From a virus (lineage: Duplodnaviria > Caudoviricetes), in the IMG/VR virus record IMGVR_UViG_3300046819_000361: 64,000 bases of DNA; one strand, 5' to 3'. The notes below the pieces were generated by a model. That model worked only from the letters and a program-made list of their open reading frames with translations. It made no database searches and had not been told where the DNA came from. Positions 1 to 17,671 of this stretch are shown one piece after another (position 1 is the stretch's first letter; each line of letters starts with the position of its first letter). The position numbers and the translations under genes are program-made.

Positions 1-244
1 GATTATCACTGGTCACAGTCATCATAGTAGCAGCATATACTAGTGAGTAATTATCATATATTTTAACCAACAATAGATGTGCTACATAATGTTCTTCTGG
101 CGTTAATTTAACCACATTGTCCGGGTCATCTTTCCCGCCCATACATCGTGGAATAATATGATGTTTCTCAAAGTATTCATTATCGAGAAACGTTCTATTT
201 TTTCCACGATGTATTAATTTTTCATATATAATTTTATAGTTCAT
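1..244 (-). CDS. HNH homing endonuclease (truncated by window edge)
   Basis: Manual translation MNYKIIYEKLIHRGKNR...FEKHHIIPRCMGGKDDPDNVVKLTPEEHYVAHLLL; HHIIP..GG..N....H motif; TATAAATA just upstream. Confidence 0.85.
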   Translation of the reverse strand, partial: MNYKIIYEKLIHRGKNRTFLDNEYFEKHHIIPRCMGGKDDPDNVVKLTPEEHYVAHLLLVKIYDNYSLVYAATMMTVTSDN

Positions 245-248
245 ATAG

Positions 249-256
249 TATTTATA
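249..256 (-). promoter_or_regulatory. T4-type late promoter TATAAATA for the HNH gene
   Basis: Exact TATAAATA ending 4 nt before the ATG. Confidence 0.7.
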
Positions 257-260
257 CTTA

Positions 261-310
261 TGAACCTACGTTCCCGGCCTGGAATGCTAATTGTATGCGG
301 TATAGATCCT
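261..310 (-). ncRNA. Bulged-helix tRNA-fragment RNA, copy 1 (apparently interrupted in its T-loop by the HNH gene)
   Basis: AGGAUC-UAUA-CCGCA 5' handle, UUCC/GGAA hairpin, then CGUAGGUUC running into the HNH promoter. Confidence 0.45.
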
Positions 311-319
311 AAAATTGTT

Positions 320-595
320 TTACTTCAATTGTGACTTTCTAAACATTCGGTCCAATTTAGTATTGATATCTTTGCAGAGTTGTTCAGATCGTTCTGCTGC
401 TTTTACTGCATTATCAACTTTTGAACTAACAGTTGATAGAGCGCGATTAGTATCTACTAATCCAGTACTCAATGTTTTTTGATTTGTAGTAATTACATCG
501 ATTTCACCTTGTAATTTGGCGATATCTGTGTTTGTTGCACATCCAGTAACCAATGCTAAAGCACCAATCATGAATAACATATTTAATTTTCTCAT
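320..595 (-). CDS. Lpp/OprI-family alanine-zipper outer-membrane lipoprotein
   Basis: Signal peptide, VTGC lipobox, coiled coil, C-terminal LDRMFRKSQLK. Confidence 0.75.
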   Translation of the reverse strand: MRKLNMLFMIGALALVTGCATNTDIAKLQGEIDVITTNQKTLSTGLVDTNRALSTVSSKVDNAVKAAERSEQLCKDINTKLDRMFRKSQLK

Positions 596-620
596 TTTAC
601 ACCTTTGTTAATTAAAATCA

Positions 621-711
621 CAGGATGATATATTGTTTCGGAGCCGGGAGATTCGAACTCCCAGAAGATACCCGCTTATCGGCTTCGGCATTTTTGTGCT
701 GTAATCACCCT
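621..711 (-). ncRNA. Bulged-helix tRNA-fragment RNA, copy 2 (T arm plus acceptor-like stem)
   Basis: AGGGUGAU-UACAGCA ... AUCAUCCUG enclosing GGGAG-UUCGAAU-CUCCC. Confidence 0.6.
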
Positions 712-721
712 TATTAATCAG

Positions 722-1135
722 TTAAGATAATCGTTCTTTTTCTGATTCCATAAAGCGTGTTCGTTTTACAAGTGATAAAACGAATTCTGACTCAGCGATT
801 GATTTGGAATCAAGATCAACTCGCAAGTTCAAGAAGTAAGAAACATCATTATGAACCAGTTTAATGGAACTATAGTCTGTTACTTCCGCAGTGAATGATT
901 TTGGAATTTGAATTACAACATCCATCAATCGTTCGAAATGTTTATCCGCATCAACAAAGTATTGTTCAACAAATGTTTTTAAGTGATGTGGTGTATTTCT
1001 TAATGTTTCGGATTTATAGTTTCTATAATTTCCGACTGAAACTGTTACCGCTTCAATAAGGTCAGTACCAGTGTATCTAGGATACTCAGGGATTAAGTTG
1101 TAAGGTTTTTTTACTTCTTGTTCAGTTACTAGCAT
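722..1135 (-). CDS. Hypothetical protein
   Basis: ORF; start moved to MLVTEQ because the longer call overlaps tRNA-Gln. Confidence 0.6.
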   Translation of the reverse strand: MLVTEQEVKKPYNLIPEYPRYTGTDLIEAVTVSVGNYRNYKSETLRNTPHHLKTFVEQYFVDADKHFERLMDVVIQIPKSFTAEVTDYSSIKLVHNDVSYFLNLRVDLDSKSIAESEFVLSLVKRTRFMESEKERLS

Positions 1136-1163
1136 TATATCATTCCGATAATAGTTAAAAAAT

Positions 1164-1237
1164 TGGCAGGGATACACGGATTCGAACCATGGATGACTGG
1201 ATCAAAACCAGTTGTGTTACCACTACACCATATCCCA
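1164..1237 (-). tRNA. tRNA-Gln(TTG)
   Basis: Cloverleaf, loop TTTTGAT, CCA encoded. Confidence 0.92.
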
Positions 1238-1247
1238 ATTGTTATTA

Positions 1248-1365
1248 CAGGTTAGCATTTTAAGTTTTCCCAATTAAACTACATTAGTGACCAACCCTAA
1301 CGCTGGGATTCGAACCCAGAACTTTCTTTTACAATAAGATTTAATAAAATTGCTGAAACTAACCT
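1248..1365 (-). ncRNA. Bulged-helix RNA, copy 3: circularly permuted tRNA-Thr(UGU)-like domain (Y RNA/YrlA-like architecture)
   Basis: AGGUUAG-UUUCAGCA handle, then anticodon arm (loop AUUGUAA), T arm, loop-closed acceptor stem, D arm, UGCUAACCUG. Confidence 0.7.
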
Positions 1366-1405
1366 ATTGGTCTTATTCGCTGGTGACTAGCCTCGAATAT
1401 TCTGT

Positions 1406-1468
1406 CAGGATACACATTTTACGGGTTTGATTAGCTGTCAAATGTATGATTGTTGCTGTAGGTATCCT
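1406..1468 (-). ncRNA. Bulged-helix RNA, copy 4 (Ser-GCU-like anticodon stem-loop)
   Basis: AGGAUACC-UACAGCA ... UUUGA-CAGCUAA-UCAAA ... GUAUCCUG. Confidence 0.6.
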
Positions 1469-1487
1469 AGAACTGTTTATGCTATGT

Positions 1488-1515
1488 ATTATACATCATT
1501 TTTATTCATTGTCAA
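1488..1515 (-). promoter_or_regulatory. Sigma70-type promoter
   Basis: TTGACA-16-TATAAT. Confidence 0.75.
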
Positions 1516-1524
1516 TATTTATTT

Positions 1525-1599
1525 TGGAGCGGGTAATGAGATTCGAACTCACGACATTCAGGTTGGCAACTTGAAGCTCTACCACTGAGCTATACCCGC
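1525..1599 (-). tRNA. tRNA-Gly(GCC)
   Basis: Cloverleaf, loop TTGCCAA, CCA. Confidence 0.93.
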
Positions 1600-1606
1600 T
1601 CAAAAT

Positions 1607-1681
1607 TGGCGGACTGTACGGAATTTGAATCCGTGATACCACCGTGACAGGGTGGCGTGATAACCGCTTCACTAACAGTCC
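1607..1681 (-). tRNA. tRNA-Asp(GTC)
   Basis: Cloverleaf, loop CTGTCAC, CCA. Confidence 0.92.
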
Positions 1682-1803
1682 AAAATTGTTGAGTATCTAA
1701 CATCATACAATACTCGGGAGACCTCTACCAGCCTCGTTTTTATTACTGCGCCTATCCGAAGATAGTGTTTCAAATGATATTAAGGTTGCCCAGCTCTAGA
1801 GTT

Positions 1804-1880
<77 letters not shown>

Positions 1881-1886
1881 ATAATT

Positions 1887-2051
1887 CTATTTAAACGGAG
1901 TTTTTTCACAGGCTAATGCATGATGATATGCTATTTTCATAGACTCATATTTTTCCGTTGCTTCGCTTAATTGTTGCTGTAATTTTAGCATATCTTGTTC
2001 TACATAATCAAGATTTCTTTTAACGATATCCGATGTTCTTTTACCTGCCAT
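1887..2051 (-). CDS. Small coiled-coil hypothetical protein (MAGKRTSD...)
   Basis: Downstream part of the track ORF; start overlaps the end of the preceding small ORF. Confidence 0.5.
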   Translation of the reverse strand: MAGKRTSDIVKRNLDYVEQDMLKLQQQLSEATEKYESMKIAYHHALACEKTPFK

Positions 2052-2184
2052 ATATAGACCTTTTAGAAATAAAAGAATCACCCCAGTCGGTAGCATGAAA
2101 TACCGCATATTTTTTAGATTTTTCACCATGTTTTTCATGGAATTTTTTAGTAGCTTCTTCGTTTACTATTGCGGTTCTTTTCAT
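2041..2184 (-). CDS. 47-aa hypothetical protein (MKRTAIVNEEATKKFHEKHG...)
   Basis: Manual translation; fills the gap and abuts genes on both sides. Confidence 0.45.
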   Translation of the reverse strand: MKRTAIVNEEATKKFHEKHGEKSKKYAVFHATDWGDSFISKRSIYGR

Positions 2185-2186
2185 AC

Positions 2187-2561
2187 TTACCTCGCAAATC
2201 CACGATTTCTCAGTAATTGTGATAATTCATATTCGAATGTACCAAAATCAGACCTTTCACGCCCATAAATTGTATCAGGAACAATAATACCAATACTAGT
2301 CAATGCATTGTCAATCGATGGTTCATTAAAAATCGCCCATGGATATTCGTTTGTTTCATTGTTTAACAAATTGGCAATGTTTGCCATCTGTTCACTAGTA
2401 CCACCATTCAATACAATTGCAGTTTTATGGTTTTCAGCCCAATCTACCAATAGTTCGTTAGTTGTACCATATTTGTTGTTGATCTCTTGCAGTGCATGCA
2501 AAGATTGTATACCGTGTTGTATAGAACTCAGGTACATGTTTGTTAAAAAATAAGCTCTCAT
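2187..2561 (-). CDS. Phage peptidyl-tRNA hydrolase II (PTH2)-like protein
   Basis: IQ.GIQ.LHA, W...HKT.IVLNGG, F.EP....LT.IGI pattern recalled for the PTH2 fold. Confidence 0.55.
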   Translation of the reverse strand: MRAYFLTNMYLSSIQHGIQSLHALQEINNKYGTTNELLVDWAENHKTAIVLNGGTSEQMANIANLLNNETNEYPWAIFNEPSIDNALTSIGIIVPDTIYGRERSDFGTFEYELSQLLRNRGFAR

Positions 2562-2634
2562 AGTTTTCCTATATGTTACTGAGTATTTATTATTTGAGGT
2601 TATCAATCATCTGGGTAGTTACCAAAACTAATTA

Positions 2635-2710
2635 GGGGTGACCGATGGGACTTGAACCCATAAAATTCTGAATCACAATCAGGGTCGTCTACCAATTCCG
2701 ACACGGCCAC
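2635..2710 (-). tRNA. tRNA-His(GTG), no encoded CCA
   Basis: Cloverleaf, loop TTGTGAT, C discriminator, 3' end reads CCT; acceptor extended by a flanking inverted repeat. Confidence 0.8.
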
Positions 2711-2728
2711 ACCTAATTAGTCTAATTT

Positions 2729-3214
2729 TATAATAAACCACACTACGGAAGGATTCGAACCTTCGGTTGCCGTCGCACTCAACACACCAGTGTACCTCAA
2801 TACGAATCGAACGTATCTTACCACCATTTATAGTGTAGTTTATTATATAATCATATAGTAAAGTGCATTAAACGAGGGAACACGAATGCTACACATCCTC
2901 CTGTCTCCGGCCCTCAAGCTTAACATCCTCCTGGCCAGTGATGTTAAGGTGACTGATTAATGCACTTTAATATAAAATTATATAGAAACACATGCTGAAG
3001 GACGAACGGCGTATTTCCATCGAAGAACTATATCTTTCTCATCGCCGTATAGCTTCCCGCACGATATAGTCTGAGTTGCGCTTCAGGATGTGTTTTTATA
3101 TAATCATATAATAAAGCATACTACACGGAATTGAACCGTCTTCATTCAAGCCCGGAGCTCAAACTGTGATCCACACAACGCTGATCAGACGCTAATATGC
3201 TTTATTATATGATT
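2729..3214 (-). ncRNA. Four tandem long-stem-closed structured RNAs (2729-2847, 2853-2974, 2979-3102, 3102-3214)
   Basis: Each has a 17-22 bp terminal inverted repeat around a GC-richer structured core; no ORFs. Confidence 0.6.
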
Positions 3215-3290
3215 TGGTAGGACCGCCGAGACTCGAACTCGAATTCCCGGATTAAAAGTCCGGTGTTCTAACCAATTGAACTACGATCCC
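3215..3290 (-). tRNA. tRNA-Lys(TTT)
   Basis: Cloverleaf, loop CTTTTAA, CCA. Confidence 0.93.
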
Positions 3291-3333
3291 AAATTTTCTT
3301 GCCTTCTTTTTCTGTTTTTGTCTTTCGTTTCAT
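3268..3333 (-). CDS. Lys-rich 21-aa mini-ORF reading into tRNA-Lys
   Basis: AGGA SD; MKRKTKTEKEGKKIWDRSSIG-TAG. Confidence 0.4.
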   Translation of the reverse strand: MKRKTKTEKEGKKIWDRSSIG

Positions 3334-3356
3334 AATTATTTCCTATGTTGTTATAG

Positions 3357-3418
3357 CAGGATACGTTTTTACTAGTTGAATTAAAAGTTCAGTGTAAATT
3401 GTTTGCTGAATGTATCCT
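3357..3418 (-). ncRNA. Bulged-helix RNA, copy 5 (Lys-UUU anticodon stem-loop)
   Basis: AGGAUACA-UUCAGCA ... UGAA-CUUUUAA-UUCA ... CGUAUCCUG. Confidence 0.65.
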
Positions 3419-3437
3419 AAAACTGTTTATGCTGTTA

Positions 3438-3465
3438 ATTATACAGCATTTTTATACGTTGTCAA
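3438..3465 (-). promoter_or_regulatory. Sigma70-type promoter
   Basis: TTGACA-16-TATAAT. Confidence 0.7.
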
Positions 3466-3778
3466 TTATTTTATCTGGATATTGTGCATCACGGCGTTCA
3501 ATTTCAGCATATGGACTGTAGCCAGGCTGTAATTCCGTGATATTAGTAAATCCATTGGTTTCTGTAATCAAACTATCATTAGAATCGATAGAACCACGAT
3601 ATTTACTACCATAACTACCTTCTAATTTACCAGTACTCGGATTAAGATCACCCCATTTAGTGTGATTACCACCGATAACTTCAATATAGTAGGTTTTACC
3701 AGTTCGGTATGAATAAACAACATGTCTACCGGTATCTTCAGTTTTTGTAAAAAATTTCTTTCGGGTTTCTTCGTCCAT
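3452..3778 (-). CDS. Conserved phage hypothetical protein
   Basis: Start MDEETRKK with AAGGA SD; longer call overlaps tRNA-Val. Confidence 0.7.
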   Translation of the reverse strand: MDEETRKKFFTKTEDTGRHVVYSYRTGKTYYIEVIGGNHTKWGDLNPSTGKLEGSYGSKYRGSIDSNDSLITETNGFTNITELQPGYSPYAEIERRDAQYPDKIIDNV

Positions 3779-3796
3779 AATAGTTTCCTTTGTGTT

Positions 3797-3870
3797 TGGT
3801 GCTTTAGAAAGGAATCGAACCTCTGTCTGCTCGGTGTAAACGAACGGCCCTACCATTAGACGACTAAAGC
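3797..3870 (-). tRNA. tRNA-Val(TAC)
   Basis: Cloverleaf, loop TTTACAC, CCA. Confidence 0.88.
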
Positions 3871-3879
3871 TATAATTGT

Positions 3880-4047
3880 TGCTTTCTTATTCCCGGCTAT
3901 CACAGAGGTTGCCACTTGTACTTCATGGTTCTCAACTTGCAGGTTCTGGCGGAACAGAATTCTCGTATTGCCAACGTGCTTTTGGTTCAAAGCATACCAC
4001 CCGTGTGTATCACCACACTTCTTATCCTCTGGGTCAGAGTATCCGTT
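3880..4047 (-). ncRNA. Candidate structured ncRNA (~165 nt)
   Basis: Non-coding, GC-elevated; CAGAGG/CCUCUG closing stem and three internal hairpins. Confidence 0.45.
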
Positions 4048-4049
4048 GA

Positions 4050-4328
4050 TTAGACGGTTCGATCTTCAAGAACTTGTTGTTCCCATTTACTTTTTAAATA
4101 GATCTTTTGACCATGCAACCAATATTCTTCTTCTGTAAAATTAGTAATAACAGCAGGGCCATGTTCATTATGATATTTCCCATCTTGGCAATAACAAGTT
4201 CTGCGGCCATCATATCTAATAATTGCTGGTCCATTTGTGTTATGCGATCTTCCATTTTTCATAAAAACTATTGTTGTATCAGATACGCTAATAGTGAGTT
4301 CAGGATTGTCTGGGTTAATATATTCCAT
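4050..4328 (-). CDS. Hypothetical protein with HNxxGPA repeats
   Basis: Two HN.(N/H)GPA(I/V)I repeats. Confidence 0.65.
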   Translation of the reverse strand: MEYINPDNPELTISVSDTTIVFMKNGRSHNTNGPAIIRYDGRRTCYCQDGKYHNEHGPAVITNFTEEEYWLHGQKIYLKSKWEQQVLEDRTV

Positions 4329-4353
4329 AATTACCAAATTGTAAAGTTAAAAT

Positions 4354-4429
4354 TGGTGCTACCGACTGGGATCGAACCAGTATAGCTGGATTTTCAGTCC
4401 AGTGCATGAACCATCACTGCCACAGTAGC
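4354..4429 (-). tRNA. tRNA-Phe(GAA)
   Basis: Cloverleaf, loop CTGAAAA, CCA. Confidence 0.9.
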
Positions 4430-4437
4430 AAAATTAT

Positions 4438-4491
4438 CAGGATACGCTTTTTCATTTTTCAAGAATGTTTTTTAATTGCTGCATGTATCCT
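4438..4491 (-). ncRNA. Bulged-helix RNA, copy 6 (Ser-UGA anticodon stem-loop)
   Basis: AGGAUACA-UGCAGCA ... CAUU-CUUGAAA-AAUG ... GCGUAUCCUG; TTGCAA-17-TATAAT promoter just upstream. Confidence 0.65.
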
Positions 4492-4514
4492 AAAACTGTG
4501 TAAATTATAACGTA

Positions 4515-5045
4515 TTATTTGAACATTTGCAAGATATTTTTCATAGCATCTGTATTACTATCCCATGTTTGTCCGCCAAATCGTCCGTATTCTATACGGT
4601 TATCAGCAGACCATTTATTATAATAATCGGACAATTCACCATTGCATTCCAATAGTGTATCACCGTAATTGATTATCATTACATTAGGATTCATGCAATC
4701 ACGAATTGAATAAACCTTCTCAAACGCTTCTTTAATACCCATGCCATGTTGTATTAGTACTAGAATAGCAGTTGCTGTACTTCTACTAACACCAGCATGA
4801 CAATGAATTAAAACTTTATCAGTATCAGTAAATGTTTTACTGAATTCTAAAATATTTTCAATATTTTGTAAAGTAGGATGTTGATATCCTTCTAATGGTA
4901 CTTCAATATCATGAAATCTTTCTACGTGATGTTCCACATCACAATCAAATACTTTGGTATTTGGATCAACAATGCTAATGACTTTAGTATGGGTTGGTAC
5001 CCATAAACTTGCTTCGTATAATCCTGATATAGTTATATCTAACAT
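4515..5045 (-). CDS. Cys-based protein tyrosine/dual-specificity phosphatase
   Basis: HCHAGVSRS (CX5R) motif. Confidence 0.88.
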   Translation of the reverse strand: MLDITISGLYEASLWVPTHTKVISIVDPNTKVFDCDVEHHVERFHDIEVPLEGYQHPTLQNIENILEFSKTFTDTDKVLIHCHAGVSRSTATAILVLIQHGMGIKEAFEKVYSIRDCMNPNVMIINYGDTLLECNGELSDYYNKWSADNRIEYGRFGGQTWDSNTDAMKNILQMFK

Positions 5046-5061
5046 TTTTTACCTCAAAAAT

Positions 5062-5113
5062 TGGCGGGGCTATAATTGCTGTTAAAATCCTTGACAGGAT
5101 TTATTTTGGCCCC
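5062..5113 (-). ncRNA. Bulged-helix RNA, copy 7 (permuted handle on a CCA-ended acceptor stem)
   Basis: GGGGC...AAUCCU-GUCA-AGGAUU-UUAACAGCA...GCCCC-G-CCA. Confidence 0.6.
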
Positions 5114-5121
5114 ATTATATT

Positions 5122-5197
5122 TGGCGACCCTACCCGGTGACGATCCGGGTTTACTATCGTGAAAGGATAGTGTTCTACCAACGTAAACTATAGGGTC
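5122..5197 (-). tRNA. tRNA-Glu(TTC)
   Basis: Cloverleaf, loop CTTTCAC, atypical T-loop ATCGTCA, CCA. Confidence 0.85.
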
Positions 5198-6024
5198 TTA
5201 TTTTTCGTATATTGGTTTCTACCCGTAATATTCCCAGGTGTTACCCGTTTTCCATTACAAGTTCTTGAACAATATACATTAATTGTTTTTAATTTTTTAT
5301 CACGTGTAAAATTTTTACCACAATGTGAACATGTGTACTCGTATAAAGGTTTATACCCATCGTATAGTGTATAATATTTTTCAGTATTATAAGTTTCTTT
5401 TACATATGTAAAAGCATATTTCAAATCATTAAATCGTAAAACATGTACATTATATCCAAAACTTTCAGCAACCTGTGTTTTTAAATCCACTGATTTTTGA
5501 TTTTCATAACCTTTTGTTTCTATTATAGTTTTATTATCCGATAAAATAAAATCAGGGTAATATTTAATACCATTTCTTTCCAAATAACCGTCAAATCTAG
5601 AAAATTTAATATTATGATCTAAATTGTATATTACCCAGCATAATTCATATGTTGATCCACAATAAATGCCATTATAATATCCTGATTTTGATCTACCAGA
5701 ACCATTTCTATATCCACCTATGTGTTTGGAACTACATTCTTTTGAACAATATTTTTTATTACTCGTTTTTATTATTCTAAAATCTGTTCCACACTCTACA
5801 CATTGTCTAATCTCACGAATAGCAAATTCTTTGCCTTTTGTAGAGGCAGGTTTAATACCTAGCTTCTTAAATGTAAGAGATGTTTTTATCTTTTGTTCTT
5901 CACTTGGTTTCCATCCAGAGTCTTTCCGTTTTCTGTTATTATATTTCGCTGAACACGATCTATTACAAAACTTTTTTGCATCTTTACTGATTAAAGTGTT
6001 TCCACATTCTAAACAATTATTCAT
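5188..6024 (-). CDS. Free-standing homing endonuclease, PD-(D/E)xK type with Zn-finger repeats
   Basis: YYPDF...IIETKG; three CxxC..CSxxC modules; TATAAATA at 6044-6051. Confidence 0.75.
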   Translation of the reverse strand: MNNCLECGNTLISKDAKKFCNRSCSAKYNNRKRKDSGWKPSEEQKIKTSLTFKKLGIKPASTKGKEFAIREIRQCVECGTDFRIIKTSNKKYCSKECSSKHIGGYRNGSGRSKSGYYNGIYCGSTYELCWVIYNLDHNIKFSRFDGYLERNGIKYYPDFILSDNKTIIETKGYENQKSVDLKTQVAESFGYNVHVLRFNDLKYAFTYVKETYNTEKYYTLYDGYKPLYEYTCSHCGKNFTRDKKLKTINVYCSRTCNGKRVTPGNITGRNQYTKNKTL

Positions 6025-6081
6025 CTGTAATCTCCATATAGAGTATTTATATGGAATTGAACTTTATTGCATTTTTTGATT

Positions 6082-6111
6082 ATAGTGTTCTAACCATTAA
6101 ACTACCAGGAT
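6082..6111 (-). pseudogene. Orphan 5' half of a tRNA-Glu-like gene
   Basis: ATCCTGG-TA-GTTTAATGGTTAGAAC-A-CTATA matches the D arm and anticodon 5' strand of the downstream tRNA-Glu; no matching 3' half. Confidence 0.65.
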
Positions 6112-6117
6112 ATAAAC

Positions 6118-6230
6118 TTTTATATAGAAACACACTCGTTTCTGAGCTTTCGGTATGTATGCCTACACTTTAGGATAGCCCCTGCGTCCAGTTGCTCAGT
6201 ATCCCTACCGTGAATGTGTTTTTATATAAA
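6118..6230 (-). ncRNA. Long-stem-closed structured RNA
   Basis: tttatatagaaacaca/tgtgtttttatataaa closing stem, same as at 2979-3102; crossing internal complementarities. Confidence 0.55.
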
Positions 6231-6231
6231 T

Positions 6232-6310
6232 TGGTCTCCGTAGCAGGATTTGAACCTGCGAATCCTCTCGATCCCAAATCGAGCGCTCTACCAAACTGAG
6301 CTATACGGAG
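6232..6310 (-). tRNA. tRNA-Pro(TGG)
   Basis: Cloverleaf, loop TTTGGGA, CCA. Confidence 0.92.
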
Positions 6311-6323
6311 ATAATTAAAATAT

Positions 6324-6416
6324 TGGTGGGTGTCCACGGATTCGAACCGCGAATGTTTACCACGAGGGACTTGATTTACAGTCAAGAGAGGCACACGCCA
6401 TAGCCTCAAGACACCC
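6324..6416 (-). tRNA. tRNA-Tyr(GTA), long D and variable arms
   Basis: Loop CTGTAAA, GAGGC/GCCTC D stem, CCA. Confidence 0.85.
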
Positions 6417-6423
6417 AATAATT

Positions 6424-6630
6424 TATAACACTCTCCCACTATGTGTTTAGACGGTTCGTAGCCGAATGAAGAGTGTATATTAAAACATACTCACTTTAAC
6501 TTGTCAAGAACCGTAATTCTTAATGCTGATCTAGTATGTTTTAATATTAAAACACACTGGTGGGTCGTTCAAATCCACTGTCTACATTCCGTAGAAATCA
6601 AATTCTACTATTCTCAATGTGTTTTAATAT
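6424..6630 (-). ncRNA. Three tandem long-stem-closed hairpin RNAs (6424-6479, 6478-6546, 6544-6630)
   Basis: Terminal inverted repeats such as tattaaaacatact/agtatgttttaata. Confidence 0.5.
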
Positions 6631-6771
6631 TTCTAGGTTTTTCCACACACCACACAAGGTGCTTCTCATCCCCTAGACCGCCCTCATTAATAGCTCATTT
6701 TTATAGTGGTGAGCAGAATCGCGTTTTCTAATAGAGACCAATATTTCATTCTCTATACCACTGTACTTCAT

Positions 6772-6800
6772 ATTATAATCTGTGTTTCTGTGTCTGTCAA
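6772..6800 (-). promoter_or_regulatory. Sigma70-type promoter of the tRNA array
   Basis: TTGACA-17-TATAAT. Confidence 0.8.
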
Positions 6801-6826
6801 CTACTTTTTTTAAGGAGTCTAAAACT

Positions 6827-6906
6827 AAAAAACCCTGAGAGTTTTCACTTTCAGGGTTCTTTGAAAAATTAACTTATAATATTAAATTATGTCTTCAAAG
6901 AACCCT
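6827..6906 (-). terminator. Intrinsic terminator with competing 13-bp antiterminator (attenuator)
   Basis: AACCCUGA/UCAGGGUU-UUUU terminator; 6894-6906 perfectly complements 6853-6865. Confidence 0.7.
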
Positions 6907-7024
6907 CACGATACTCCGGTGTGCGATCATTAATTAAACTAAATGCACACCATACAGACGCAATCGAGCCGCCTTTTAAGGTTGATTGTAGTTTAAATTG
7001 TTGATGTAATGATTGCATTTCCAT
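6887..7024 (-). CDS. Putative attenuator leader peptide (45 aa, all 20 amino acids)
   Basis: AAGGA SD; last codons form the antiterminator strand; TTGACA-17-TATAAT at 7076-7104. Confidence 0.6.
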   Translation of the reverse strand: MEMQSLHQQFKLQSTLKGGSIASVWCAFSLINDRTPEYREGSLKT

Positions 7025-8354: not shown

Positions 8355-8885
8355 AATACTAAAGGAGAACTAACGTTCTCCTGTTCTTCGCTATCGCTCA
8401 TCACATTTTTTATAATTTCTATCTTACCTATTCAACTAGATTACGATTTACTTTTGCCCCCATAAAGGGAGCAAAAAAATAATTTCAACTGAGTTGACTT
8501 CATTAGTAGAGTTACACTGGTTACAGAGGCGGTTGGCCGATACCTCGAAGTGCGTTTTTGTTTCTGTTGTCCAACGGTGGCATTAGGAAAATACTCTACC
8601 ATATTCCTAATACGTCCAGGAATTACCTGGTCATTTAGCCTTTTTATCTTTTGTTTAAACATTCGAAATTGGTTGTACGTAGGCGTATCCAATCATCATT
8701 TGCATCACAATGTGCAAGTAGTCGAATGAGTCGCTGCTTCTACTCAGCTGTTTCCCTCCATGCGAAGAACATTCCATTTCCTGGGGCACCTGTCAAACCA
8801 CCGGTGCGAGTGTATCAGAAGTGTATAGCCTGAAAAAGTGCCTGTGAAATCATATTTATCGTTGCCTAAATTTATTTGCCTAATG
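8355..8885 (-). ncRNA. Candidate large (~500 nt) structured ncRNA
   Basis: No credible ORF, at least 8 hairpins, TAGACA-17-TATAAT promoter at 8891-8919. Confidence 0.45.
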
Positions 8886-9859: not shown

Positions 9860-10222
9860 TTACATCAATGATTTATATAATGAACCAGACAGTTGAAAGT
9901 TTGACTTCCAATTCCATTCATCTAACACTAATTGATTAAACGTGGTGTCATCTAACTCAATGACATCGTCGATACTTAATTCGAGCATTCTGATTGCACG
10001 AGTGTAGCTTTGTTCATATGAACTAGGAACAGATGGTAAGTTTTTAACTTTTGCAATATTGTTCAAATCGCCTGTATTGACAAGTTTTAAGTTATTTTTA
10101 GTAATGACTACCACTGCTTTTTTGAAATCTTCAACTGATTCGTTGAACTCAACAATATGTTTTTCTTTGTTTTCACGAACTACTGCGAGTAATTCTTCTC
10201 TTTTAATTTTTACTGTTTTCAT
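9860..10222 (-). CDS. Conserved phage hypothetical protein
   Basis: Start MKTVKIK; longer call overlaps the tRNA. Confidence 0.75.
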   Translation of the reverse strand: MKTVKIKREELLAVVRENKEKHIVEFNESVEDFKKAVVVITKNNLKLVNTGDLNNIAKVKNLPSVPSSYEQSYTRAIRMLELSIDDVIELDDTTFNQLVLDEWNWKSNFQLSGSLYKSLM

Positions 10223-10261
10223 AACGTTATTTTCAATGTTTCTCATATAAAATGTATTGGT

Positions 10262-10336
10262 TGGTGCACCCGATGGGATTCGAACCCATTGTCGCAAGTT
10301 TTAGAGGCTTGTGCTATACCTAGTAGCTTCGGGTGC
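10262..10336 (-). tRNA. Amber suppressor tRNA (anticodon CTA)
   Basis: Cloverleaf; CAAGC-CTCTAAA-ACTTG puts CTA at 34-36; CCA. Confidence 0.8.
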
Positions 10337-10343
10337 AAAAAAG

Positions 10344-10712
10344 TTAATCATACGAACTGGATGAGCCTGAATCACTTGAAGAACTGTAGTCATGCGAACT
10401 ATGAGAATGACTAGAGGAACTACTATGTGATGATCCATAATCATGCGAACTATATGAACTATATGAACTATGTGAGTGGTTAGCATTGTGTGAACTTGAG
10501 TCTACACTCTTTGCCGCAGCATATGAATCCCACACGTCAACTGATGCTTTGATTACGTTATCCACTGTTTCTGAATCTATATCAAGATCATGCTTTTGTG
10601 ATTTATTTCGTTTATCACTATTTGAAACATACTTCGAAGACACATTAGATTTAGTATCTACTTTCTGAATTGATTGTTTTTTAGTAAAAAAACTTTTGAT
10701 TTTTTCTAACAT
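10344..10712 (-). CDS. Hypothetical protein with Ser/His-rich tail
   Basis: ORF with AAGGA SD, low-complexity C-terminus. Confidence 0.65.
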   Translation of the reverse strand: MLEKIKSFFTKKQSIQKVDTKSNVSSKYVSNSDKRNKSQKHDLDIDSETVDNVIKASVDVWDSYAAAKSVDSSSHNANHSHSSYSSYSSHDYGSSHSSSSSHSHSSHDYSSSSDSGSSSSYD

Positions 10713-10730
10713 AATTTTCCTTATGAAAAA

Positions 10731-10750
10731 TGTGGGGAATTACCCCCACA
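10731..10750 (-). terminator. Intrinsic terminator of the ter cluster
   Basis: tgtgggg/ccccaca hairpin plus U-run. Confidence 0.6.
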
Positions 10751-10758
10751 AAAATGGA

Positions 10759-11328
10759 TTATTGATAACCGCTGACGATATCGCCTAACTCAAGACCATC
10801 GAACCCGGCTCCAATTGCCTGGAATGAGAATTGTCCATCACGTTTGAAGAATGATCCAACTTGAACGGCTGTTTCATTTTTGTAGTCAGCATCTAGATCA
10901 TAGAATGCAATTTCCTCATTGGTATCAGCATTTAAGATTTTGATACCTGCTTCAGGTACCTGACCAAAAGACTGACCACGAGATACAGCTTCATGGATGG
11001 TTACAACAATTGAAATTTCATCAACTGTTGCTGGTAACGTATTGATATCGATGAAAACCTCTTCGGTACCACCTTGACGCATATCTGGTGTTTTTGAAAC
11101 ACTTTTTTCAGGTGTCGCTTCATTGTTATAGAACACCAAATAGTCATCACCTAACAACTTCGGACCATTATCGGTTGTTTTCAAAACAAACGCTGATACA
11201 TCTAAATCATATTTTGGATTGTTATCTGGAACATTCCACCATAATACTGCCTTTACCTTTCCCATGGCAGGTTGTGATTTGGTTAGGTTGATACCTTTAT
11301 TTTCAGATTTTGCAAGATTAATTGCCAT
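10759..11328 (-). CDS. terD: TerD-family stress protein
   Basis: INLTK, DLDVSAF, VFYNN, VVTIHEA..RGQSFGQV, FQAIGAG. Confidence 0.88.
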   Translation of the reverse strand: MAINLAKSENKGINLTKSQPAMGKVKAVLWWNVPDNNPKYDLDVSAFVLKTTDNGPKLLGDDYLVFYNNEATPEKSVSKTPDMRQGGTEEVFIDINTLPATVDEISIVVTIHEAVSRGQSFGQVPEAGIKILNADTNEEIAFYDLDADYKNETAVQVGSFFKRDGQFSFQAIGAGFDGLELGDIVSGYQ

Positions 11329-11351
11329 GTTATTACCTCTTGGTAGTTTAA

Positions 11352-12359
11352 TTAAATTGATTTGTGTTTGATTGAAGAGATCAATGATGCACCAATGAAT
11401 GCAGCACCAATCAACCCTGTAATGCTTTCTGGAATTTCGTATACAGTATTTACGAACATGATGATAGCCAATCCAAATATTGCATAGAATGCACCATGCT
11501 CTAGGTAAATGAATTCATCAACAGTGCCCTTATCTACCATTAGTAATGTTAAGCTTCTTACGAATAACGCACCGATACCAAGGCCAATCATGATGATGAA
11601 AATATTGTTTGTCAATGCTAATGCACCTAATACTCCGTCGAAACTGAAGCTTGCATCTAATACTTCCAAGTAAAGAAACGATGCTAACCCGGATTTGGCT
11701 ACTGCACCTGTAACCGTGCCATCATCAGTCCCGATTACTGCTTCTAAACCATCGACAAGAATGTACGTTACTAATCCGAATACACTTGCGACCAAGAATG
11801 CTGATGCTTCTGTTTCATTATGTGTGGATCCGATGATTTTGTAAACAATATATACCAATACTAATGTAATTGCAGATTGTATTGCTTCAATTTTGCCTAA
11901 TTTAGTGAATCTTTCTTCAATTGGTTTAAGCCAATGCGTATCTTTGTCTTGATCGATGAAAAACTTTAATGCAACCATCATTAGGAATGTGCCACCGAAA
12001 CCCATGACTGAGGTATGGACTGATTCTAGCGCATGAGAATACTGTTCTGGGTCATTAACTGCTAACATGAATGATGAATATGGGTTAATTCCCAATGCAA
12101 CTGATACAATTGCTAATGGAAACACCATTCTCATACCAAATACAGCAATAGCCATACCCCAGGTAATGAAACGATGACGCCATATATCATCCATTCCTTT
12201 TAGAACTTGTGCATTCACGACGGCATTATCAAAACTCAAACTAACTTCAAGAATTGATAGAACTAACGTGATCCAGGCTGCTTCGAGCCCACCGATCAAA
12301 TATGCTAGTACGATACCGATACCAGCAATCAAAAAAGAACCTTTAAAATATTGTAACAT
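11352..12359 (-). CDS. DUF475/TerC-like integral membrane protein
   Basis: LEVSLSFDNAVVNA, YLEVLDASFSFDGV, YLEHGAFYAI. Confidence 0.88.
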   Translation of the reverse strand: MLQYFKGSFLIAGIGIVLAYLIGGLEAAWITLVLSILEVSLSFDNAVVNAQVLKGMDDIWRHRFITWGMAIAVFGMRMVFPLAIVSVALGINPYSSFMLAVNDPEQYSHALESVHTSVMGFGGTFLMMVALKFFIDQDKDTHWLKPIEERFTKLGKIEAIQSAITLVLVYIVYKIIGSTHNETEASAFLVASVFGLVTYILVDGLEAVIGTDDGTVTGAVAKSGLASFLYLEVLDASFSFDGVLGALALTNNIFIIMIGLGIGALFVRSLTLLMVDKGTVDEFIYLEHGAFYAIFGLAIIMFVNTVYEIPESITGLIGAAFIGASLISSIKHKSI

Positions 12360-12422
12360 TGGATATTACCTGTGTGTTTGTTAAAAGAAGCTTCATTCTA
12401 CCTGTAAATTCAGGTATGTCAA

Positions 12423-13103
12423 TTATTTTTTAAACTTTCCGACCCAATCAGCAAATTCTTGGCTGATAATGTCTTCATATAAGTCTTCATCACTGATACT
12501 TTCGATATCATCTATCTTCAAATAACCGGCATTTGGGTATTTTTCGCCCAAATATTCGATAAATGAGAAGTTCCCACCACCAATACCGATCAAAACCCAA
12601 TATAAATCTTTAGATTGTGATTCTACGATAACCTTTTCAGTTGCTTGTTGATCGAAATTCTCGCCATCGGTGATGAAAATAGCTAATGATGGGTCAGTTG
12701 AATTAGATTTCTTCCCAAACAACTTCCCAAATAGGCCAGTTTGTACTGGTGCGGCACTATTAACGATGTCTTTCATGACTGGTGCATACTCTGTACCACC
12801 TTCACTAATTTTTTTGACGATTTCACGGTCAACAAAGTCTTCGATGTTGCTAATATTGACTGATGGCAGCTCAAATGAATCATTATGAAATGCCCAAATG
12901 TCAATAATTTTATCTTTATCGATGTTCATACCAATTGCTAGCACTCGTTCTACCACATCTTGAACGACTTTGTTGCGATATAGGGTATTCATGGACCCAC
13001 TGCGATCAATTGCCAGTTTTACTTGGCATGGAATGTCACGGATTTGTTTTTTAGTTAGGATGATACCTACTTTTTCTGCTCTTTTAGTTAAATCAATAGC
13101 CAT
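12423..13103 (-). CDS. vWA-domain protein (Ter-associated)
   Basis: DRSGSM MIDAS, GGTEYAPVM, FITDG. Confidence 0.85.
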   Translation of the reverse strand: MAIDLTKRAEKVGIILTKKQIRDIPCQVKLAIDRSGSMNTLYRNKVVQDVVERVLAIGMNIDKDKIIDIWAFHNDSFELPSVNISNIEDFVDREIVKKISEGGTEYAPVMKDIVNSAAPVQTGLFGKLFGKKSNSTDPSLAIFITDGENFDQQATEKVIVESQSKDLYWVLIGIGGGNFSFIEYLGEKYPNAGYLKIDDIESISDEDLYEDIISQEFADWVGKFKK

Positions 13104-13132
13104 TTTTACTTATCTCGGTTGATTGTTAAAAA

Positions 13133-14272
13133 TTAATGGGTTTTTGGTCCTGCAATAGTGGTCCGTCCAGCATTAGATGAAATGGAAGCATACATGCGCT
13201 TCATTTCATCCATTCTCGATGCACTTTTAATTCTAGTTTCTTTACCAGTATTGTTTATTTGCACAATTTCTCCTAATGTACTGATTAGGTTTTGATGTAC
13301 ATGTTCTATTGTAGCATCATCTATCAATGAACGTTGGTTTAATTTTGCTGATTCAATTGAATTAGCACTAATGATGTTTGAATTGGTTTTAATTAGAGTA
13401 TTGTTTGCATCATCTACTGCTGCTGCTAATGCTGCACTTTTTCTTAATTCTTGACCATCTATATACATTCTGATTTGTCTTTTCCATAATGGAATAGTCA
13501 TAGTTTTGATATCATGGAATTTTTGGAGTAATGTTGCAGCACTATCTTCCATTTGACTAATTGAAGGTGCATTTTGAATAGCCATCATTTGAAATTTCTT
13601 CAAATAATCGATTTTCTTCTCCAATCGATCTAAATTTTTTGTACTTCTATTAACTTCTTCGGCGGCAAGGAGATCTGATGCGTTAACCCGCATTTTTTCA
13701 ATTTCTTTTGCCATTATTTGGTATGCTTCTTCTGCATCTTTGATCAAATTTTCTAATCTGTGATATTCATTCAAATTTTCACGGTATTGCACTTGCAGAC
13801 CGTTTAATTTGGCAATAATTCTGTGATTGGCTTGATCAATTTCGTCAATAATTTTGTCCATTTGTGTGGACACATCAGTGAATTCTGCTGAAAGTTGTTC
13901 ACGGACATTAATAAACTTTTCTTTGATCTTTCCAAAGAGTTTTGAAATATTTGAATCTGAATTATTGTTCGTATTCAGGTGAAATGTCTTCGCCATTGTT
14001 AGAATACTAGTTAACTGTTGTTCAACGAAGTCAACGTCAGCATCTTTGACTTCATTTAATAAAGCTTCTGATTTTTTGGCAATATCTGACATAACATCCG
14101 CCCCGTAATCGATAATCCCGGTTGGTGAATCAAATGTTGAAAGTAATTGGAGTACACGAGGATTGGATGCGCCTAAATCTGACAATTGTTTAGGTGAAAC
14201 TGGTGTAAATGACTGTTTAACTGAAACTTCAGTACCAGATGATGACACTTGAACAGGTTTAAAAGACTTCAT
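13133..14272 (-). CDS. TelA-family toxic anion resistance protein
   Basis: Long coiled coil, Q.APSI..M and TIPLWK motifs, ter context. Confidence 0.8.
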   Translation of the reverse strand: MKSFKPVQVSSSGTEVSVKQSFTPVSPKQLSDLGASNPRVLQLLSTFDSPTGIIDYGADVMSDIAKKSEALLNEVKDADVDFVEQQLTSILTMAKTFHLNTNNNSDSNISKLFGKIKEKFINVREQLSAEFTDVSTQMDKIIDEIDQANHRIIAKLNGLQVQYRENLNEYHRLENLIKDAEEAYQIMAKEIEKMRVNASDLLAAEEVNRSTKNLDRLEKKIDYLKKFQMMAIQNAPSISQMEDSAATLLQKFHDIKTMTIPLWKRQIRMYIDGQELRKSAALAAAVDDANNTLIKTNSNIISANSIESAKLNQRSLIDDATIEHVHQNLISTLGEIVQINNTGKETRIKSASRMDEMKRMYASISSNAGRTTIAGPKTH

Positions 14273-14304
14273 AATACCCTTTTGAATGTGAATGTGTAAA
14301 AAGA

Positions 14305-14326
14305 TAGTAGGGATTTCTCCCTACTA
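14305..14326 (-). terminator. Terminator after tmRNA
   Basis: TAGTAGGGA/TCCCTACTA plus U-run. Confidence 0.7.
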
Positions 14327-14846
14327 GGTATTTTTGGTTATAAGGTATTTCCTACCCCAGAATTCGCTGGTTATTAAGCAGCGATAGCATCAAAGATGCC
14401 ATCTACAGTGTAGAATTCAAATTTAGAATCGTTTGCGATTACTATGTTTATGCTGATTAGGTCAGTCATATCTCCTGTTGCCTTCTCCACTATTACACCA
14501 CGTCGAAACCAACTGTCATTCCCATCATAAAAACATAGGTACTCCCCTTTGAAGGGGCAGGGAGTTTATGGCTATGGCCCCACTCTGATACCAACCTATG
14601 TTCTTATGGTGGAAATGCCCGGGGTCGAACCGGGGTCCGCAATGCCTTTATTTTGAAGGAATAACAACAATTCTGTATATCTATACCGCACACCCTTGCG
14701 ACTTCAGCCTGTTAAGGTAGAGCTACTAAATAGAAGTCATAGAGTTCTATATGTTCGCATAGATAAGTTAAATATCTAACTATGGTTCAATAATGGCGTA
14801 CCACTCCTAATCGTTTGTACTATGTACCGGATTTAAGTTAGACTAT
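14327..14846 (-). ncRNA. ssrA: Circularly permuted (two-piece) tmRNA; tag ANDSKFEFYTVDGIFDAIAA at 14374-14436
   Basis: Acceptor piece ends GGUUCGACCCCGGGCAUUUCCACCA (14607), coding piece starts GGGAAUG (14523); G3-U70; promoter at 14853-14880; 5' boundary uncertain. Confidence 0.88.
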
Positions 14847-14883
14847 TTGCTTATTATAGCATTATATTTATATTTGTCAAGAA

Positions 14884-14955
14884 TTATTTGTTACGTTTTA
14901 CACGTGCTTTTGTTCTTGGTTGACCGGTTACTTTGTTATTTCTACTTCTAGCCAT
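14884..14955 (-). CDS. 23-aa highly basic peptide MARSRNNKVTGQPRTKARVKRNK
   Basis: GAGGT SD; own TTGACA-16-TATAAT promoter at 14987-15014. Confidence 0.55.
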   Translation of the reverse strand: MARSRNNKVTGQPRTKARVKRNK

Positions 14956-15040
14956 TTTCGGTACCTCTGTTGTTTAAGATGAGCTTATTATACATCAGCC
15001 AAACGTGATGTCAAGCATTTTTTAATAAATACTACTATTA

Positions 15041-15517
15041 ATGGAGAAGTATGTGGACATAGGTATCCCTAATTTTGATTTTTTTAGTCTGGTACAACAA
15101 GCAGGATTCCCAATAGCCCTTGCAGTAGTGTGTGGTTGGTTTATTATGCAAGCAATTCAGTTAGTTCTGAGTTCTGTAGTTAAATCAATTAAAAAAATCA
15201 TAGGTCTTATAAAATCCATGGACGGGCGAGTGAAACAGATGAATATCGATGTTTTAGACTTGGATAAACTGGTATCTAAATCACTAGAAGTCGATCCACT
15301 GCCATTAAAAGTACATCATGAAGTAGCAGCAGTTATGAATAGCCATGGTGAAAAACCGCCACCTCTACCTTCACCACCACCTCCGCCTGATGCTCCAAAA
15401 AAATCTTCAATACTTAAAAAGATTTCTGATGTGGTAGATGATGCGGTTGGAAAGGCACAAGATATTGTAGATGATGCTACTAAACTAGCAGAAAAAGTGG
15501 AGAAAATTAAAAAATGA
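15041..15517 (+). CDS. Small membrane protein (TM plus coiled coil), paralog 1
   Basis: GFPIA..GWF TM; D.RVKQMN.D..LD motif; Pro-rich linker. Confidence 0.65.
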   Translation: MEKYVDIGIPNFDFFSLVQQAGFPIALAVVCGWFIMQAIQLVLSSVVKSIKKIIGLIKSMDGRVKQMNIDVLDLDKLVSKSLEVDPLPLKVHHEVAAVMNSHGEKPPPLPSPPPPPDAPKKSSILKKISDVVDDAVGKAQDIVDDATKLAEKVEKIKK

Positions 15518-15798
15518 GCCCAGAAACAGTAAAGTTTTTTTCAGATACATTAACTCCGATACTCGGTAGTTGTGTTCTAGGTGCTTTTATCTTTACAGCA
15601 TTAAAGTTTGTATTAGGTGATATTATTACATCGGTAAAGTCATTAGCTGGTATTGTAATGGCATTAGAAAACAGGGTTAAAACCTGTTCACACGAACTTA
15701 TTAAAATCGACGTTACTATATCATCGGTATTGGGATTACGCCCAGATTTAGATAGGATTTCGAGAATGGACGGGAAGGTAGACGCTCGCCGAGACTAA
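15514..15798 (+). CDS. Small membrane protein, paralog 2
   Basis: TM; ENRVKT...IKID; ends DARRD. Confidence 0.7.
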   Translation: MSPETVKFFSDTLTPILGSCVLGAFIFTALKFVLGDIITSVKSLAGIVMALENRVKTCSHELIKIDVTISSVLGLRPDLDRISRMDGKVDARRD

Positions 15799-15834
15799 TT
15801 ATCGTAAAAACGACGCACTTGTATAAATATAGGT

Positions 15835-16452: not shown

Positions 16453-16456
16453 TTAG

Positions 16457-17012: not shown

Positions 17013-17021
17013 GGAAACAAA

Positions 17022-17576: not shown

Positions 17577-17629
17577 GAATTGCCGTAGGACCGTGACTCT
17601 GTTACGAAGGCGATAGGTATCTACTACCT

Positions 17630-17660
17630 TTGGAACGCTGATTCGCTACCAGCGTTCCAA
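17630..17660. terminator. Hairpin between convergent genes
   Basis: ttggaacgctg/cagcgttccaa 11-bp stem. Confidence 0.55.
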
Positions 17661-17671
17661 GAAGTGTAGTA

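Follow-up and report, generated by a model that had tools for sequence, protein, structure and literature searches.

Elements of the tRNA-rich region

We analyzed a window of 64,000 nt, i.e., the whole stretch of DNA examined here, from the IMG/VR virus record IMGVR_UViG_3300046819_000361 (Caudoviricetes), with a focus on seven elements that lie among tRNA genes near its left end. The first 6.5 kb carry genes on the minus strand only, and all elements, promoters, and open reading frames (ORFs) described for this region share this strand. ARAGORN and Rfam found 12 tRNAs in the window, including those for Gln, Gly, Asp, Ile, His, Lys, Val, Phe, Glu, Pro, and Tyr, and none of the seven elements was called by ARAGORN or by the Rfam tRNA model (RF00005). 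A preliminary description had presented these elements as seven small RNAs that combine one conserved handle with interchangeable tRNA parts. The analysis showed that they belong to one widespread family and probably encode small structured RNAs, and the linkage of this family in related viruses points to a protein of Ro60-like fold, with the Pfam domains DUF2828 and DUF7788, as its probable partner.

The whole window was scanned for AG[GA]N4 and, after 2-4 nt, CNGCA, with a complementary N4'YCUG no more than 220 nt away. Exactly five complete elements were found, all within 621-4491 and each where the preliminary description had placed it. These five copies form a 7-bp helix starting from A-G-R, with an unpaired G after the 3' strand. 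The shared terminal helix claimed for all seven elements thus held for the five complete copies and failed for the element at 5062-5113, in which the two strands occur in reversed order and the helix is not terminal; at 262-310, the 5' strand alone lies within the window. The window copies have a spacer and an unpaired CNGCA(A) directly 3' of the 5' strand, which reads CAGCAA in five of them, CAGCAC in 621-711, and CCGCA in 262-310.

Three of the complete copies are short forms, here named A (1406-1468, with a leader to 1476), B (3357-3418), and C (4438-4491), and have the helix AGGAUAC/GUAUCCU+G in common. Their cargo is an anticodon-arm-like hairpin with a 7-nt loop on a 4-5 bp stem, and the loops are CAGCUAA in A, CUUUUAA in B (Lys-UUU-like), and CUUGAAA in C (Ser-UGA-like). 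The ortholog of A in the related record G002 has the canonical loop CUGCUAA. A, B, and C scored 48.7, 54, and 53.7 bits, respectively, with the covariance model of the family, all three being part of its training set. The leader ACAGUUYUAGGAUAC has three occurrences in the window, solely at these three copies. The only two perfect sigma-70 consensus promoters of the region (12/12) are located directly upstream of A (1515-1488, TTGACA-16-TATAAT) and B (3465-3438), and a promoter-like site with 10/12 matches is located directly upstream of C (4532-4504, TTGCAA-17-TATAAT), in agreement with the earlier statement that three copies with a shared leader stand behind promoters of their own. The promoter positions indicate three units, namely A with the long form at 1248-1365 and tRNA-Gln, B with tRNA-Lys(UUU) 67 nt later, and C with tRNA-Phe 8 nt later.

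The long form at 1248-1365 has the helix AGGUUAG/CUAACCU+G and contains a permuted, closed-acceptor tRNA-like domain composed of a hairpin with loop AUUGUAA, a T arm, a loop-closed acceptor-like stem, and a D arm. It scored 36.9 bits (E of 3e-6) with the covariance model R1, which was built from 72 short forms and did not include it. When the window copy is compared with that of G002, covariation is seen in both the T stem and the acceptor-like stem. A Thr-UGU reading of its hairpin was found to be weak, as the G002 ortholog has a 6-nt non-canonical loop there. The element at 621-711 carries a tRNA "top half" (acceptor-like stem plus T arm) on the 8-bp helix AGGGUGAU/AUCAUCCU+G, which includes one G-U pair and is followed by the 2-nt spacer UA and CAGCAC; its model score was merely 13.2 bits (E of 0.85). 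It is placed between the stop codon of an ORF and the Shine-Dalgarno (SD) sequence of a lipoprotein gene. The cargo of its orthologs (G007 22422-22512 and G002 2444-2535) ends in ..CCGCCA. The three loops of the short forms, the T arm of 621-711, and the permuted domain of 1248-1365 had all been recognized correctly in the preliminary description. No further copy was found by scanning the window with the covariance model, all other matches having E>0.7.

The remaining two elements are atypical. The segment 262-310 (AGGAUCU-AUA-CCGCA and the start of a T arm) is the 5' part of a long form and ends at GGUUC in the T loop. Save for CCGCA in place of CAGCA, it has the same sequence as the initial 49 nt of an element that is complete, with 113 nt, in G007 (21998-22110). 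The partial copy reported at 261-310 is therefore real in its 5' part and is broken in the T loop (GGUUC|GAAUCC) by an HNH homing-endonuclease ORF (244-2, N-terminal 81 aa; Pfam PF01844, E of 3e-5), which runs off the left end of the window; the remainder of the element lies beyond the edge. This ORF is absent at the corresponding site in G007 and G002, where the handle RNA is intact. By comparison with these relatives, 262-310 is an interrupted copy, not a decayed one. An intron and a plain insertion are alike compatible with the HNH gene at the T-loop site, the 3' part being off the window.

The element at 5062-5113, located 8 nt after tRNA-Glu, is a CCA-ending minihelix (z of -1.97) in which the handle module forms an internal hairpin in the order ..AAAUCCUG-UCA-AGGAUUU-UAA-CAGCAA.. 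inside GGGGC/GCCCC+GCCA. It is the sole element ending in GCCA and has no D, anticodon, or T arm. A near-identical ortholog exists in G007/L057, and further reversed-order modules occur in tRNA-like contexts in L030 and L056. An ORF for a dual-specificity, Cys-based (DSP-type) phosphatase (4515-5045; PF00782, E of 1e-11) lies between C and the minihelix, which abuts the SD sequence of this ORF.

A widespread RNA family with a conserved handle

The family was defined operationally in the present analysis and is absent from Rfam 15. Its consensus handle consists of a 7-bp helix (5' AGGAUNN and 3' NNAUCCU, then an unpaired G), an NUN spacer, and a single-stranded CAGCAA on the 5' side. An exact 17-mer scan of IMG/VR (TAGGAUAC-NNN-CAGCAA) returned at least 120 viral contigs, and the matching 3' strand was present in 75 of the 120 fetched loci. 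Four kinds of members were observed: short forms (45-66 nt), long forms in which tRNA-like domains are permuted, cargo-less minimal forms, and tandem arrays of up to 10 units in giant-virus metagenome-assembled genome (MAG) and jumbo contigs. Arrays of 3-10 near-identical units of 52-76 nt were seen in L015, L034, L037, L040, L051, L062, L063, L066, and L094, and their helices include G-U pairs (GUAUUCU pairing with AGGAUAC). A CRISPR-array reading of the 64-76 nt tandem arrays was rejected because whole units are near-identical and lack unique spacers, and for a self-cleaving ribozyme reading, no Rfam ribozyme model gave a match. With both gathering and E-value thresholds, Rfam gave no ribozyme, CRISPR, Drum, GOLLD, or Y-RNA match on the elements or the tandem arrays, and no description of the handle RNA family was found in Rfam or in the literature searched.

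When CAGCAA sites were taken regardless of pairing, a perfect 7-bp partner followed by G was present in 571 of 1943, while two shifted control registers yielded 148 and 97. The length of the helix is exactly 7 bp; pairing at an eighth and ninth position was seen in only 38% of cells. Within the helix, positions 2 and 5 do not vary, positions 1, 3, and 4 alternate between two pair types, and positions 6-7 are free; C11, G13, C14, and A15 are invariant across the family. The unselected flanks are also conserved, with U at -4 to -1 in 65-85% and at +1 and +2 in 83% and 74%, respectively, so that UUUU upstream and UU downstream are typical.

Because the first elements had been selected for pairing, the pair count was repeated on an independent set, which comprised bacterial and archaeal contigs found via the DUF2828/DUF7788 protein and then searched with the covariance model (518 kb, both strands, E<=0.01). 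All 35 hits were on the strand of the protein gene. In their alignment, which was fitted to the model and is hence biased toward it, 244 of 244 cells were paired with both-sided changes at all seven pairs, and the covariation score was reached by none of 500 shuffles, slid registers being also far off. One MAFFT alignment of upstream regions (A3) was off by 3 columns and was left out of the pair counts. Conservation of CAGCA and covariation of the helix, both anticipated by the preliminary description, are thus present, and the G-U pairs together with the strict strand bias indicate an element that acts at the RNA level.

tRNA-like cargo

In 78 of 200 distinct short forms, the best hairpin had a 7-nt loop, compared to 15.7 in shuffles. 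The anticodon-loop pattern YU-NNN-R-N was present in 56 of the 200, versus 0.75 in shuffles, confirming the expected enrichment of anticodon loops in homologs; these cargo counts include orthologs and thus do not represent independent events. The most frequent anticodons were UUU (13), UGA (12), UGU (8), and GCU (4), the same kinds as in the window. Loops of 9-10 nt occur in about 61 short forms, and minimal forms are without any hairpin, indicating that the cargo is optional and that the handle is the core of the family. In long forms, the acceptor is loop-closed and without CCA.

Linkage to a DUF2828/DUF7788 gene

A DUF2828/DUF7788 gene was found in four of the five related records first checked, and overall in G002, G003, G005, G006, and G007. 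G001, the nearest record, lacks coverage of the tRNA region as well as a DUF2828 gene and is therefore uninformative either way. Megablast of window positions 1-7000 against INPHARED gave tRNA matches only and no close named-phage relative. G007 and the window are colinear, with an identity of 84-96% that falls to 71-79% in two stretches; window position 262 corresponds to G007 22062. In G007, the same strand carries the gene at 13176-14585, which places it about 7.5 kb past the left edge of the window, and 14 more handle RNAs lie between. Judging from this colinearity, the gene of the present phage is most probably located just outside the window, about 7.5 kb beyond its left edge, and we infer from its relatives that this particular phage has a Ro60-like partner as well.

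The linkage was found in both directions. Starting from the protein, 67 of 71 viral loci had, no more than 400 nt upstream and on the same strand, a handle with perfect pairing. Most of these handles end 11-16 nt before the start codon, so that the 3' strand abuts the SD sequence, and minimal cargo-less elements of 41-45 nt were found directly upstream of the gene. Starting from the RNA, DUF2828 was detected above the Pfam cut-off in 32 of 41 records with true elements, most of which are fragments of 1-26% completeness, versus none of 41 records with a chance 17-mer match. About 140 nt separate the arrays in the giant-virus MAGs L015 and L063 from a DUF2828 ORF of divergent orientation. Furthermore, homologs of about 35-55% identity with one to four handles ahead of them were found in contigs labeled Chloroflexota, Gammaproteobacteria, Verrucomicrobiales, Spirochaetia, Izemoplasmatales, and a Woesearchaeota MAG. 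Some of these bacterial- or archaeal-labeled contigs may be phage DNA. With the gene usually directly downstream of a handle, the handle is probably a protein tether of the Ro60/Y-RNA kind, as had been proposed.

Three GIY-YIG homing endonuclease genes interrupt the island of G007. In the locus L212 (G007 10001-23300), a YqeY-like (GatB-C-like) protein is encoded at 2502-2942 (-) just downstream of the Ro60-like gene and is followed by a GIY-YIG endonuclease gene, a coiled-coil ORF, and then an AAA_33/KTI12-like P-loop kinase at 377-847 (-). The YqeY-like protein and the kinase in G007, and the DSP phosphatase beside two window elements, offer weak context for function.

Predicted Ro60 fold of the linked protein

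The protein of the relatives belongs to a family of 6124 clusters at 50% identity, and a full-text literature search on DUF2828 found no functional paper. Members of the DUF2828 family also exist in eukaryotes according to Pfam-based papers. We predicted the structure with AlphaFold2 from a 73-sequence alignment and obtained a model with a pLDDT (predicted local distance difference test) of 91.3 and a pTM (predicted template modeling score) of 0.90. In a Foldseek search of the PDB, the 13 best matches were all Ro60/TROVE proteins, with E values of 4e-9 to 3e-6, template modeling scores of 0.40-0.62, and 518-558 alignment columns. The matched structures come from Thermus phage phiLo, Xenopus, human, and Deinococcus, the best being 9KOP, and von Willebrand factor A (vWA) domains ranked far behind. 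Along its entire length, the model was matched by Ro60 only. The model thus has the Ro60 fold, at 12-18% identity to Ro60 and with Pfam assignments to DUF2828/DUF7788, not TROVE.

Comparison with known RNAs

Ro60/Y-RNA particles occur in animals, some bacteria, and a few phages, with 1-4 RNAs each. In phages of the present family, by contrast, there are about 20 handle RNAs per genome, compared to 1-3 for YrlA, and many of them carry an anticodon-arm mimic only or no cargo. Ro60 binds the stem formed by the Y RNA ends, mainly its 5' strand, and the remainder recruits a partner such as PNPase (PMC4201824). Like YrlA (RF02553, PMC4201824), the handle RNAs combine a stem of the transcript ends, protein-binding in YrlA, with a tRNA-like body (T arm, D arm, and loop-closed acceptor-like stem) and are encoded close to, and on the same strand as, a ring-plus-vWA protein of Ro60 fold. 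A YrlA-type domain is present in 1248-1365 and in the full-length ortholog of 262-310, and absent from the three short forms and 5062-5113. Unlike YrlA, the handle has AGGAU..NUN-CAGCAA and not GNCGAA(N)G.

The Ro60 of Thermus phage phiLo binds two Y-like RNAs (Yrl1/Yrl2) encoded just upstream of its own gene (PMC12135203) and has been shown experimentally to assemble a RYPER-like complex with host PNPase (PMC12135203; PDB 9KOP, 9L5Y). The present system is similar in that a phage Ro60-like protein, known here from sequence and a predicted model, has RNAs encoded directly upstream of its gene. The phiLo RNAs differ in having a CGAA motif, a stem-bulge-stem build, and no tRNA-like cargo. A survey of jumbo phages also noted that some carry a ROT/TROVE protein with a tRNA-like partner (PMC7824862).

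A second resemblance is to the dictyostelid Class I RNAs (RF01414, PMC7919456), which likewise have an end stem with a conserved G, a motif ending in CAGCAA, a variable remainder, and a 3' CUG(U). The RF01414 sequence GaUcuC-CUUA-CAGCAA...GagAuC-UG aligns with GGAUAC-AUG-CAGCAA...GUAUCC-UG of the handle. The hallmarks of Class I RNAs are a length of 42-65 nt, a terminal stem with 5' G, C6, C9, A10, A11, and 3' CUG(U) (PMC7919456). The short forms are 54-63 nt long, with an invariant G2, an invariant C..CAA, and a 3' end CCUG; U follows CCUG in 83% of the family and in none of three window copies. The RF01414 model gave 29.2 bits for 4438-4490, 23.1 bits for 3357-3417, and 28-30 bits for relatives, with the gathering score of 41.5 not reached. 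Class I RNAs are reportedly confined to Dictyostelia, have a Dictyostelium upstream sequence element (DUSE) promoter and one known direct binder, the RNA recognition motif protein Rnp1A (PMC7919456), and no tRNA-like cargo has been described for them. The sigma-70 promoters and the phage context with tRNAs and a transfer-messenger RNA (tmRNA) rule out assignment to Class I proper, which requires a DUSE about 60 nt upstream in a dictyostelid genome. The sequence resemblance makes homology possible, and the wider proposal that the handle RNAs and Class I RNAs form one ancient class, sharing Ro60-fold DUF2828 proteins as partners, is doubtful.

A proposed Y-RNA-like role and its alternatives

We consider it rather probable that the handle RNAs are Y-RNA-like partners of the phage Ro60-like protein and bear tRNA-derived pieces. 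By analogy with Ro60, the AGGAU 5' strand and NUN-CAGCAA would be the docking site for the ring protein with DUF2828 and DUF7788/vWA; with a Ro60-like ring docked there, the RNAs would be functional analogues of Y RNAs. The variable part would display tRNA modules, including anticodon-arm mimics (Lys-UUU, Ser-UGA, and Ser-GCU types), the acceptor/T-arm "top half," whole closed-acceptor tRNA-like domains, and the CCA minihelix. These modules would either recruit proteins that bind tRNA to the ring or vie for such proteins with genuine tRNAs. They may be decoys that occupy anticodon nucleases, adaptors on which repair or modification enzymes assemble, or gates of the ring. The strong promoters would yield co-transcripts of handle RNA and tRNA, which tRNA processing would then separate. 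Since one copy in relatives abuts the SD sequence of the Ro60-like gene, the arrangement suggests that the protein represses its own translation through the upstream handle. The interpretation given in the preliminary description, a protein-tethered library of tRNA decoys or adaptors, is partly supported.

Several results weigh against this Y-RNA-like role. Pfam searches of the large ORFs and tblastn with the protein of a relative found no DUF2828 gene in the window, in line with the earlier remark that it has no Ro60/TROVE gene. Distant homologs of about 33% identity, mostly from Lachnospiraceae, showed no handle by the strict pattern and a single hit with the covariance model (L254, 34.5 bits). 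Comparison with the Rfam Y RNA models spoke against an identity with YrlA in both score and motif. The YrlA model (RF02553) had no match at E<=1 in window positions 1-7000, and its best scores in relatives were 48.9 bits (a long form in L020, T and D arms only) and 36.5 bits, compared to the Rfam threshold of 69. GNCGAA occurs in none of the seven elements, and the GNCGAA/CGAA of known bacterial and phage Y RNAs is absent from the handle; Rsr is putatively contacted at GNCGAA(N0-1)G/CGAA near the 5' end (PMC4201824, PMC12135203). When the alignment of the protein family was used for a sequence-profile search of the PDB, there was no hit, so that the link to Ro60 is one of fold alone. Much of the co-occurrence could also reflect shared ancestry of one phage tRNA island and not function. 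However, the linkage persists to roughly 35-40% protein identity and in contigs labeled as several phyla, which argues against shared ancestry as the explanation.

Without a Ro-like protein, the elements could be free-standing tRNA decoys that sponge host anticodon nucleases or tRNA-modifying enzymes, with the handle stabilizing or marking the RNA ends. The strong enrichment of anticodon-like loops with a few dominant anticodons, the location in a tRNA island behind strong promoters, and the lack of a Ro-like gene in the window are consistent with such decoys. However, canonical loops are found in only 56 of 200 short forms, cargo-less elements lie directly upstream of the DUF2828 gene, and the conservation of the handle sequence and its tight linkage to the protein are left unexplained, making free-standing decoys improbable.

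In permuted and split tRNA genes, as in Cyanidioschyzon and Nanoarchaeum, the arms are circularly permuted and a helix is formed from the transcript ends. The long forms resemble them in both respects, and the handle could accordingly be a cleavage or ligation signal (bulge-helix-bulge [BHB]-like or a site for RNase P/E/III) that matures neighboring tRNAs or mRNAs or turns permuted tRNA genes into functional tRNAs by rearrangement. The start of 140 of 326 elements 1-7 nt after CCA and the reversed-order modules inside tRNA-like RNAs with CCA ends would also fit processing punctuation. Unlike permuted tRNA genes, however, the family has no BHB motif, has loop-closed acceptors without CCA, includes short and cargo-less members with nothing to mature, and is linked to a Ro60-like protein instead of a splicing endonuclease. 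In addition, ordinary tRNA-Thr, Ser, and Lys genes are also present in G007, the anticodon-like loop of the long form is not conserved in G002, and no splicing endonuclease or ligase was seen by Pfam among the window proteins. A processing function is thus quite improbable.

The elements could instead be purely cis-acting leaders (attenuators or translational operators for downstream ORFs or tRNAs, maybe bound by a host factor) with no role in trans. In favor of this, several copies abut SD sequences, namely 621-711 (lipoprotein gene), 5062-5113 (phosphatase gene), and, in relatives, the copy ahead of the DUF2828 gene. Yet many copies precede tRNAs or other handle RNAs and not ORFs, tandem arrays reach 10 units, none has a U-tract terminator, and the tRNA-like cargo would be purposeless, so that we regard a purely cis-acting role as distinctly improbable. 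A DNA-level repeat (a selfish miniature element or recombination site spreading via tRNA islands), which the multiple copies, the nearby homing endonuclease genes, and the HNH insertion in one copy might suggest, is very improbable and already disfavored, because the orientation is strictly one-stranded relative to transcription, G-U pairs are mismatches on the opposite strand, and compensatory changes maintain pairing as the sequence drifts.

Other features of the window

Between tRNA-Lys and tRNA-His (2733-3204, minus strand), four more structured RNA-like units are located at about 3116-3204, 3003-3092, 2858-2968, and 2733-2842. They have no CAGCAA handle, and UAUAAU-like boxes flank each. 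Two of the four fold far better than shuffles (z of -3.05 and -2.64), two have T-arm-like hairpins, and none was called by ARAGORN or Rfam. The segment 3880-4049 (-), about 170 nt between an ORF and tRNA-Val, is apparently richer in G+C than its surroundings; it had no Rfam match and folds no better than shuffles (z of +0.67).

Farther into the window, a circularly permuted two-piece tmRNA of the beta type was identified at 14338-14720 (-), with 124.6 bits for RF04321 and 97.8 bits for RF01850, and another is present in L079. A Polynucleobacter-1 RNA motif (RF01718) lies at 8657-8812 (-) with 64.6 bits, compared to a threshold of 37. The tRNA at 10262-10336 (-) has the anticodon CUA and the ARAGORN label "Pyl"; it is of the amber-suppressor type, which makes TAG recoding in this phage possible. 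The stretches 11352-14272 and 17672-28947 (-) encode a TerC/DUF475 membrane protein, a vWA-TerF-like protein, TelA, a CHASE2-adenylate/guanylate cyclase, PA14- and FecR-domain proteins, and a full-length Hsp70/DnaK, which are unusual cargo for a phage.

Implications

The reading of these elements as modular tRNA-like RNAs tethered to a protein, a variant of the Ro60/Y-RNA system with its own handle, is well supported by comparisons among genomes. A very large DUF2828/DUF7788 family that is without functional annotation is paired here with its own RNA family, whose handle is compact and easy to recognize and whose numerous phage copies present differing tRNA parts. If the binding is true, this very large protein family, and with it hundreds of intergenic RNAs from phage tRNA islands that lack an explanation, would gain an annotation, the handle would be a natural modular scaffold that presents RNA modules on a protein ring, and the part of tRNA islands in the conflict over tRNA cleavage and repair would become testable. 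The resemblance to Class I RNAs offers a concrete hypothesis for an RNA class that has been an orphan for 20 years. If the handle RNAs and Class I RNAs did form one ancient class, Class I RNAs would gain a candidate protein partner, and DUF2828 with handle RNA would be a second Ro/Y-RNA branch across viruses, bacteria, and eukaryotes, and its phage members would have become a varied library of tRNA mimics directed at conflict systems that target tRNAs.

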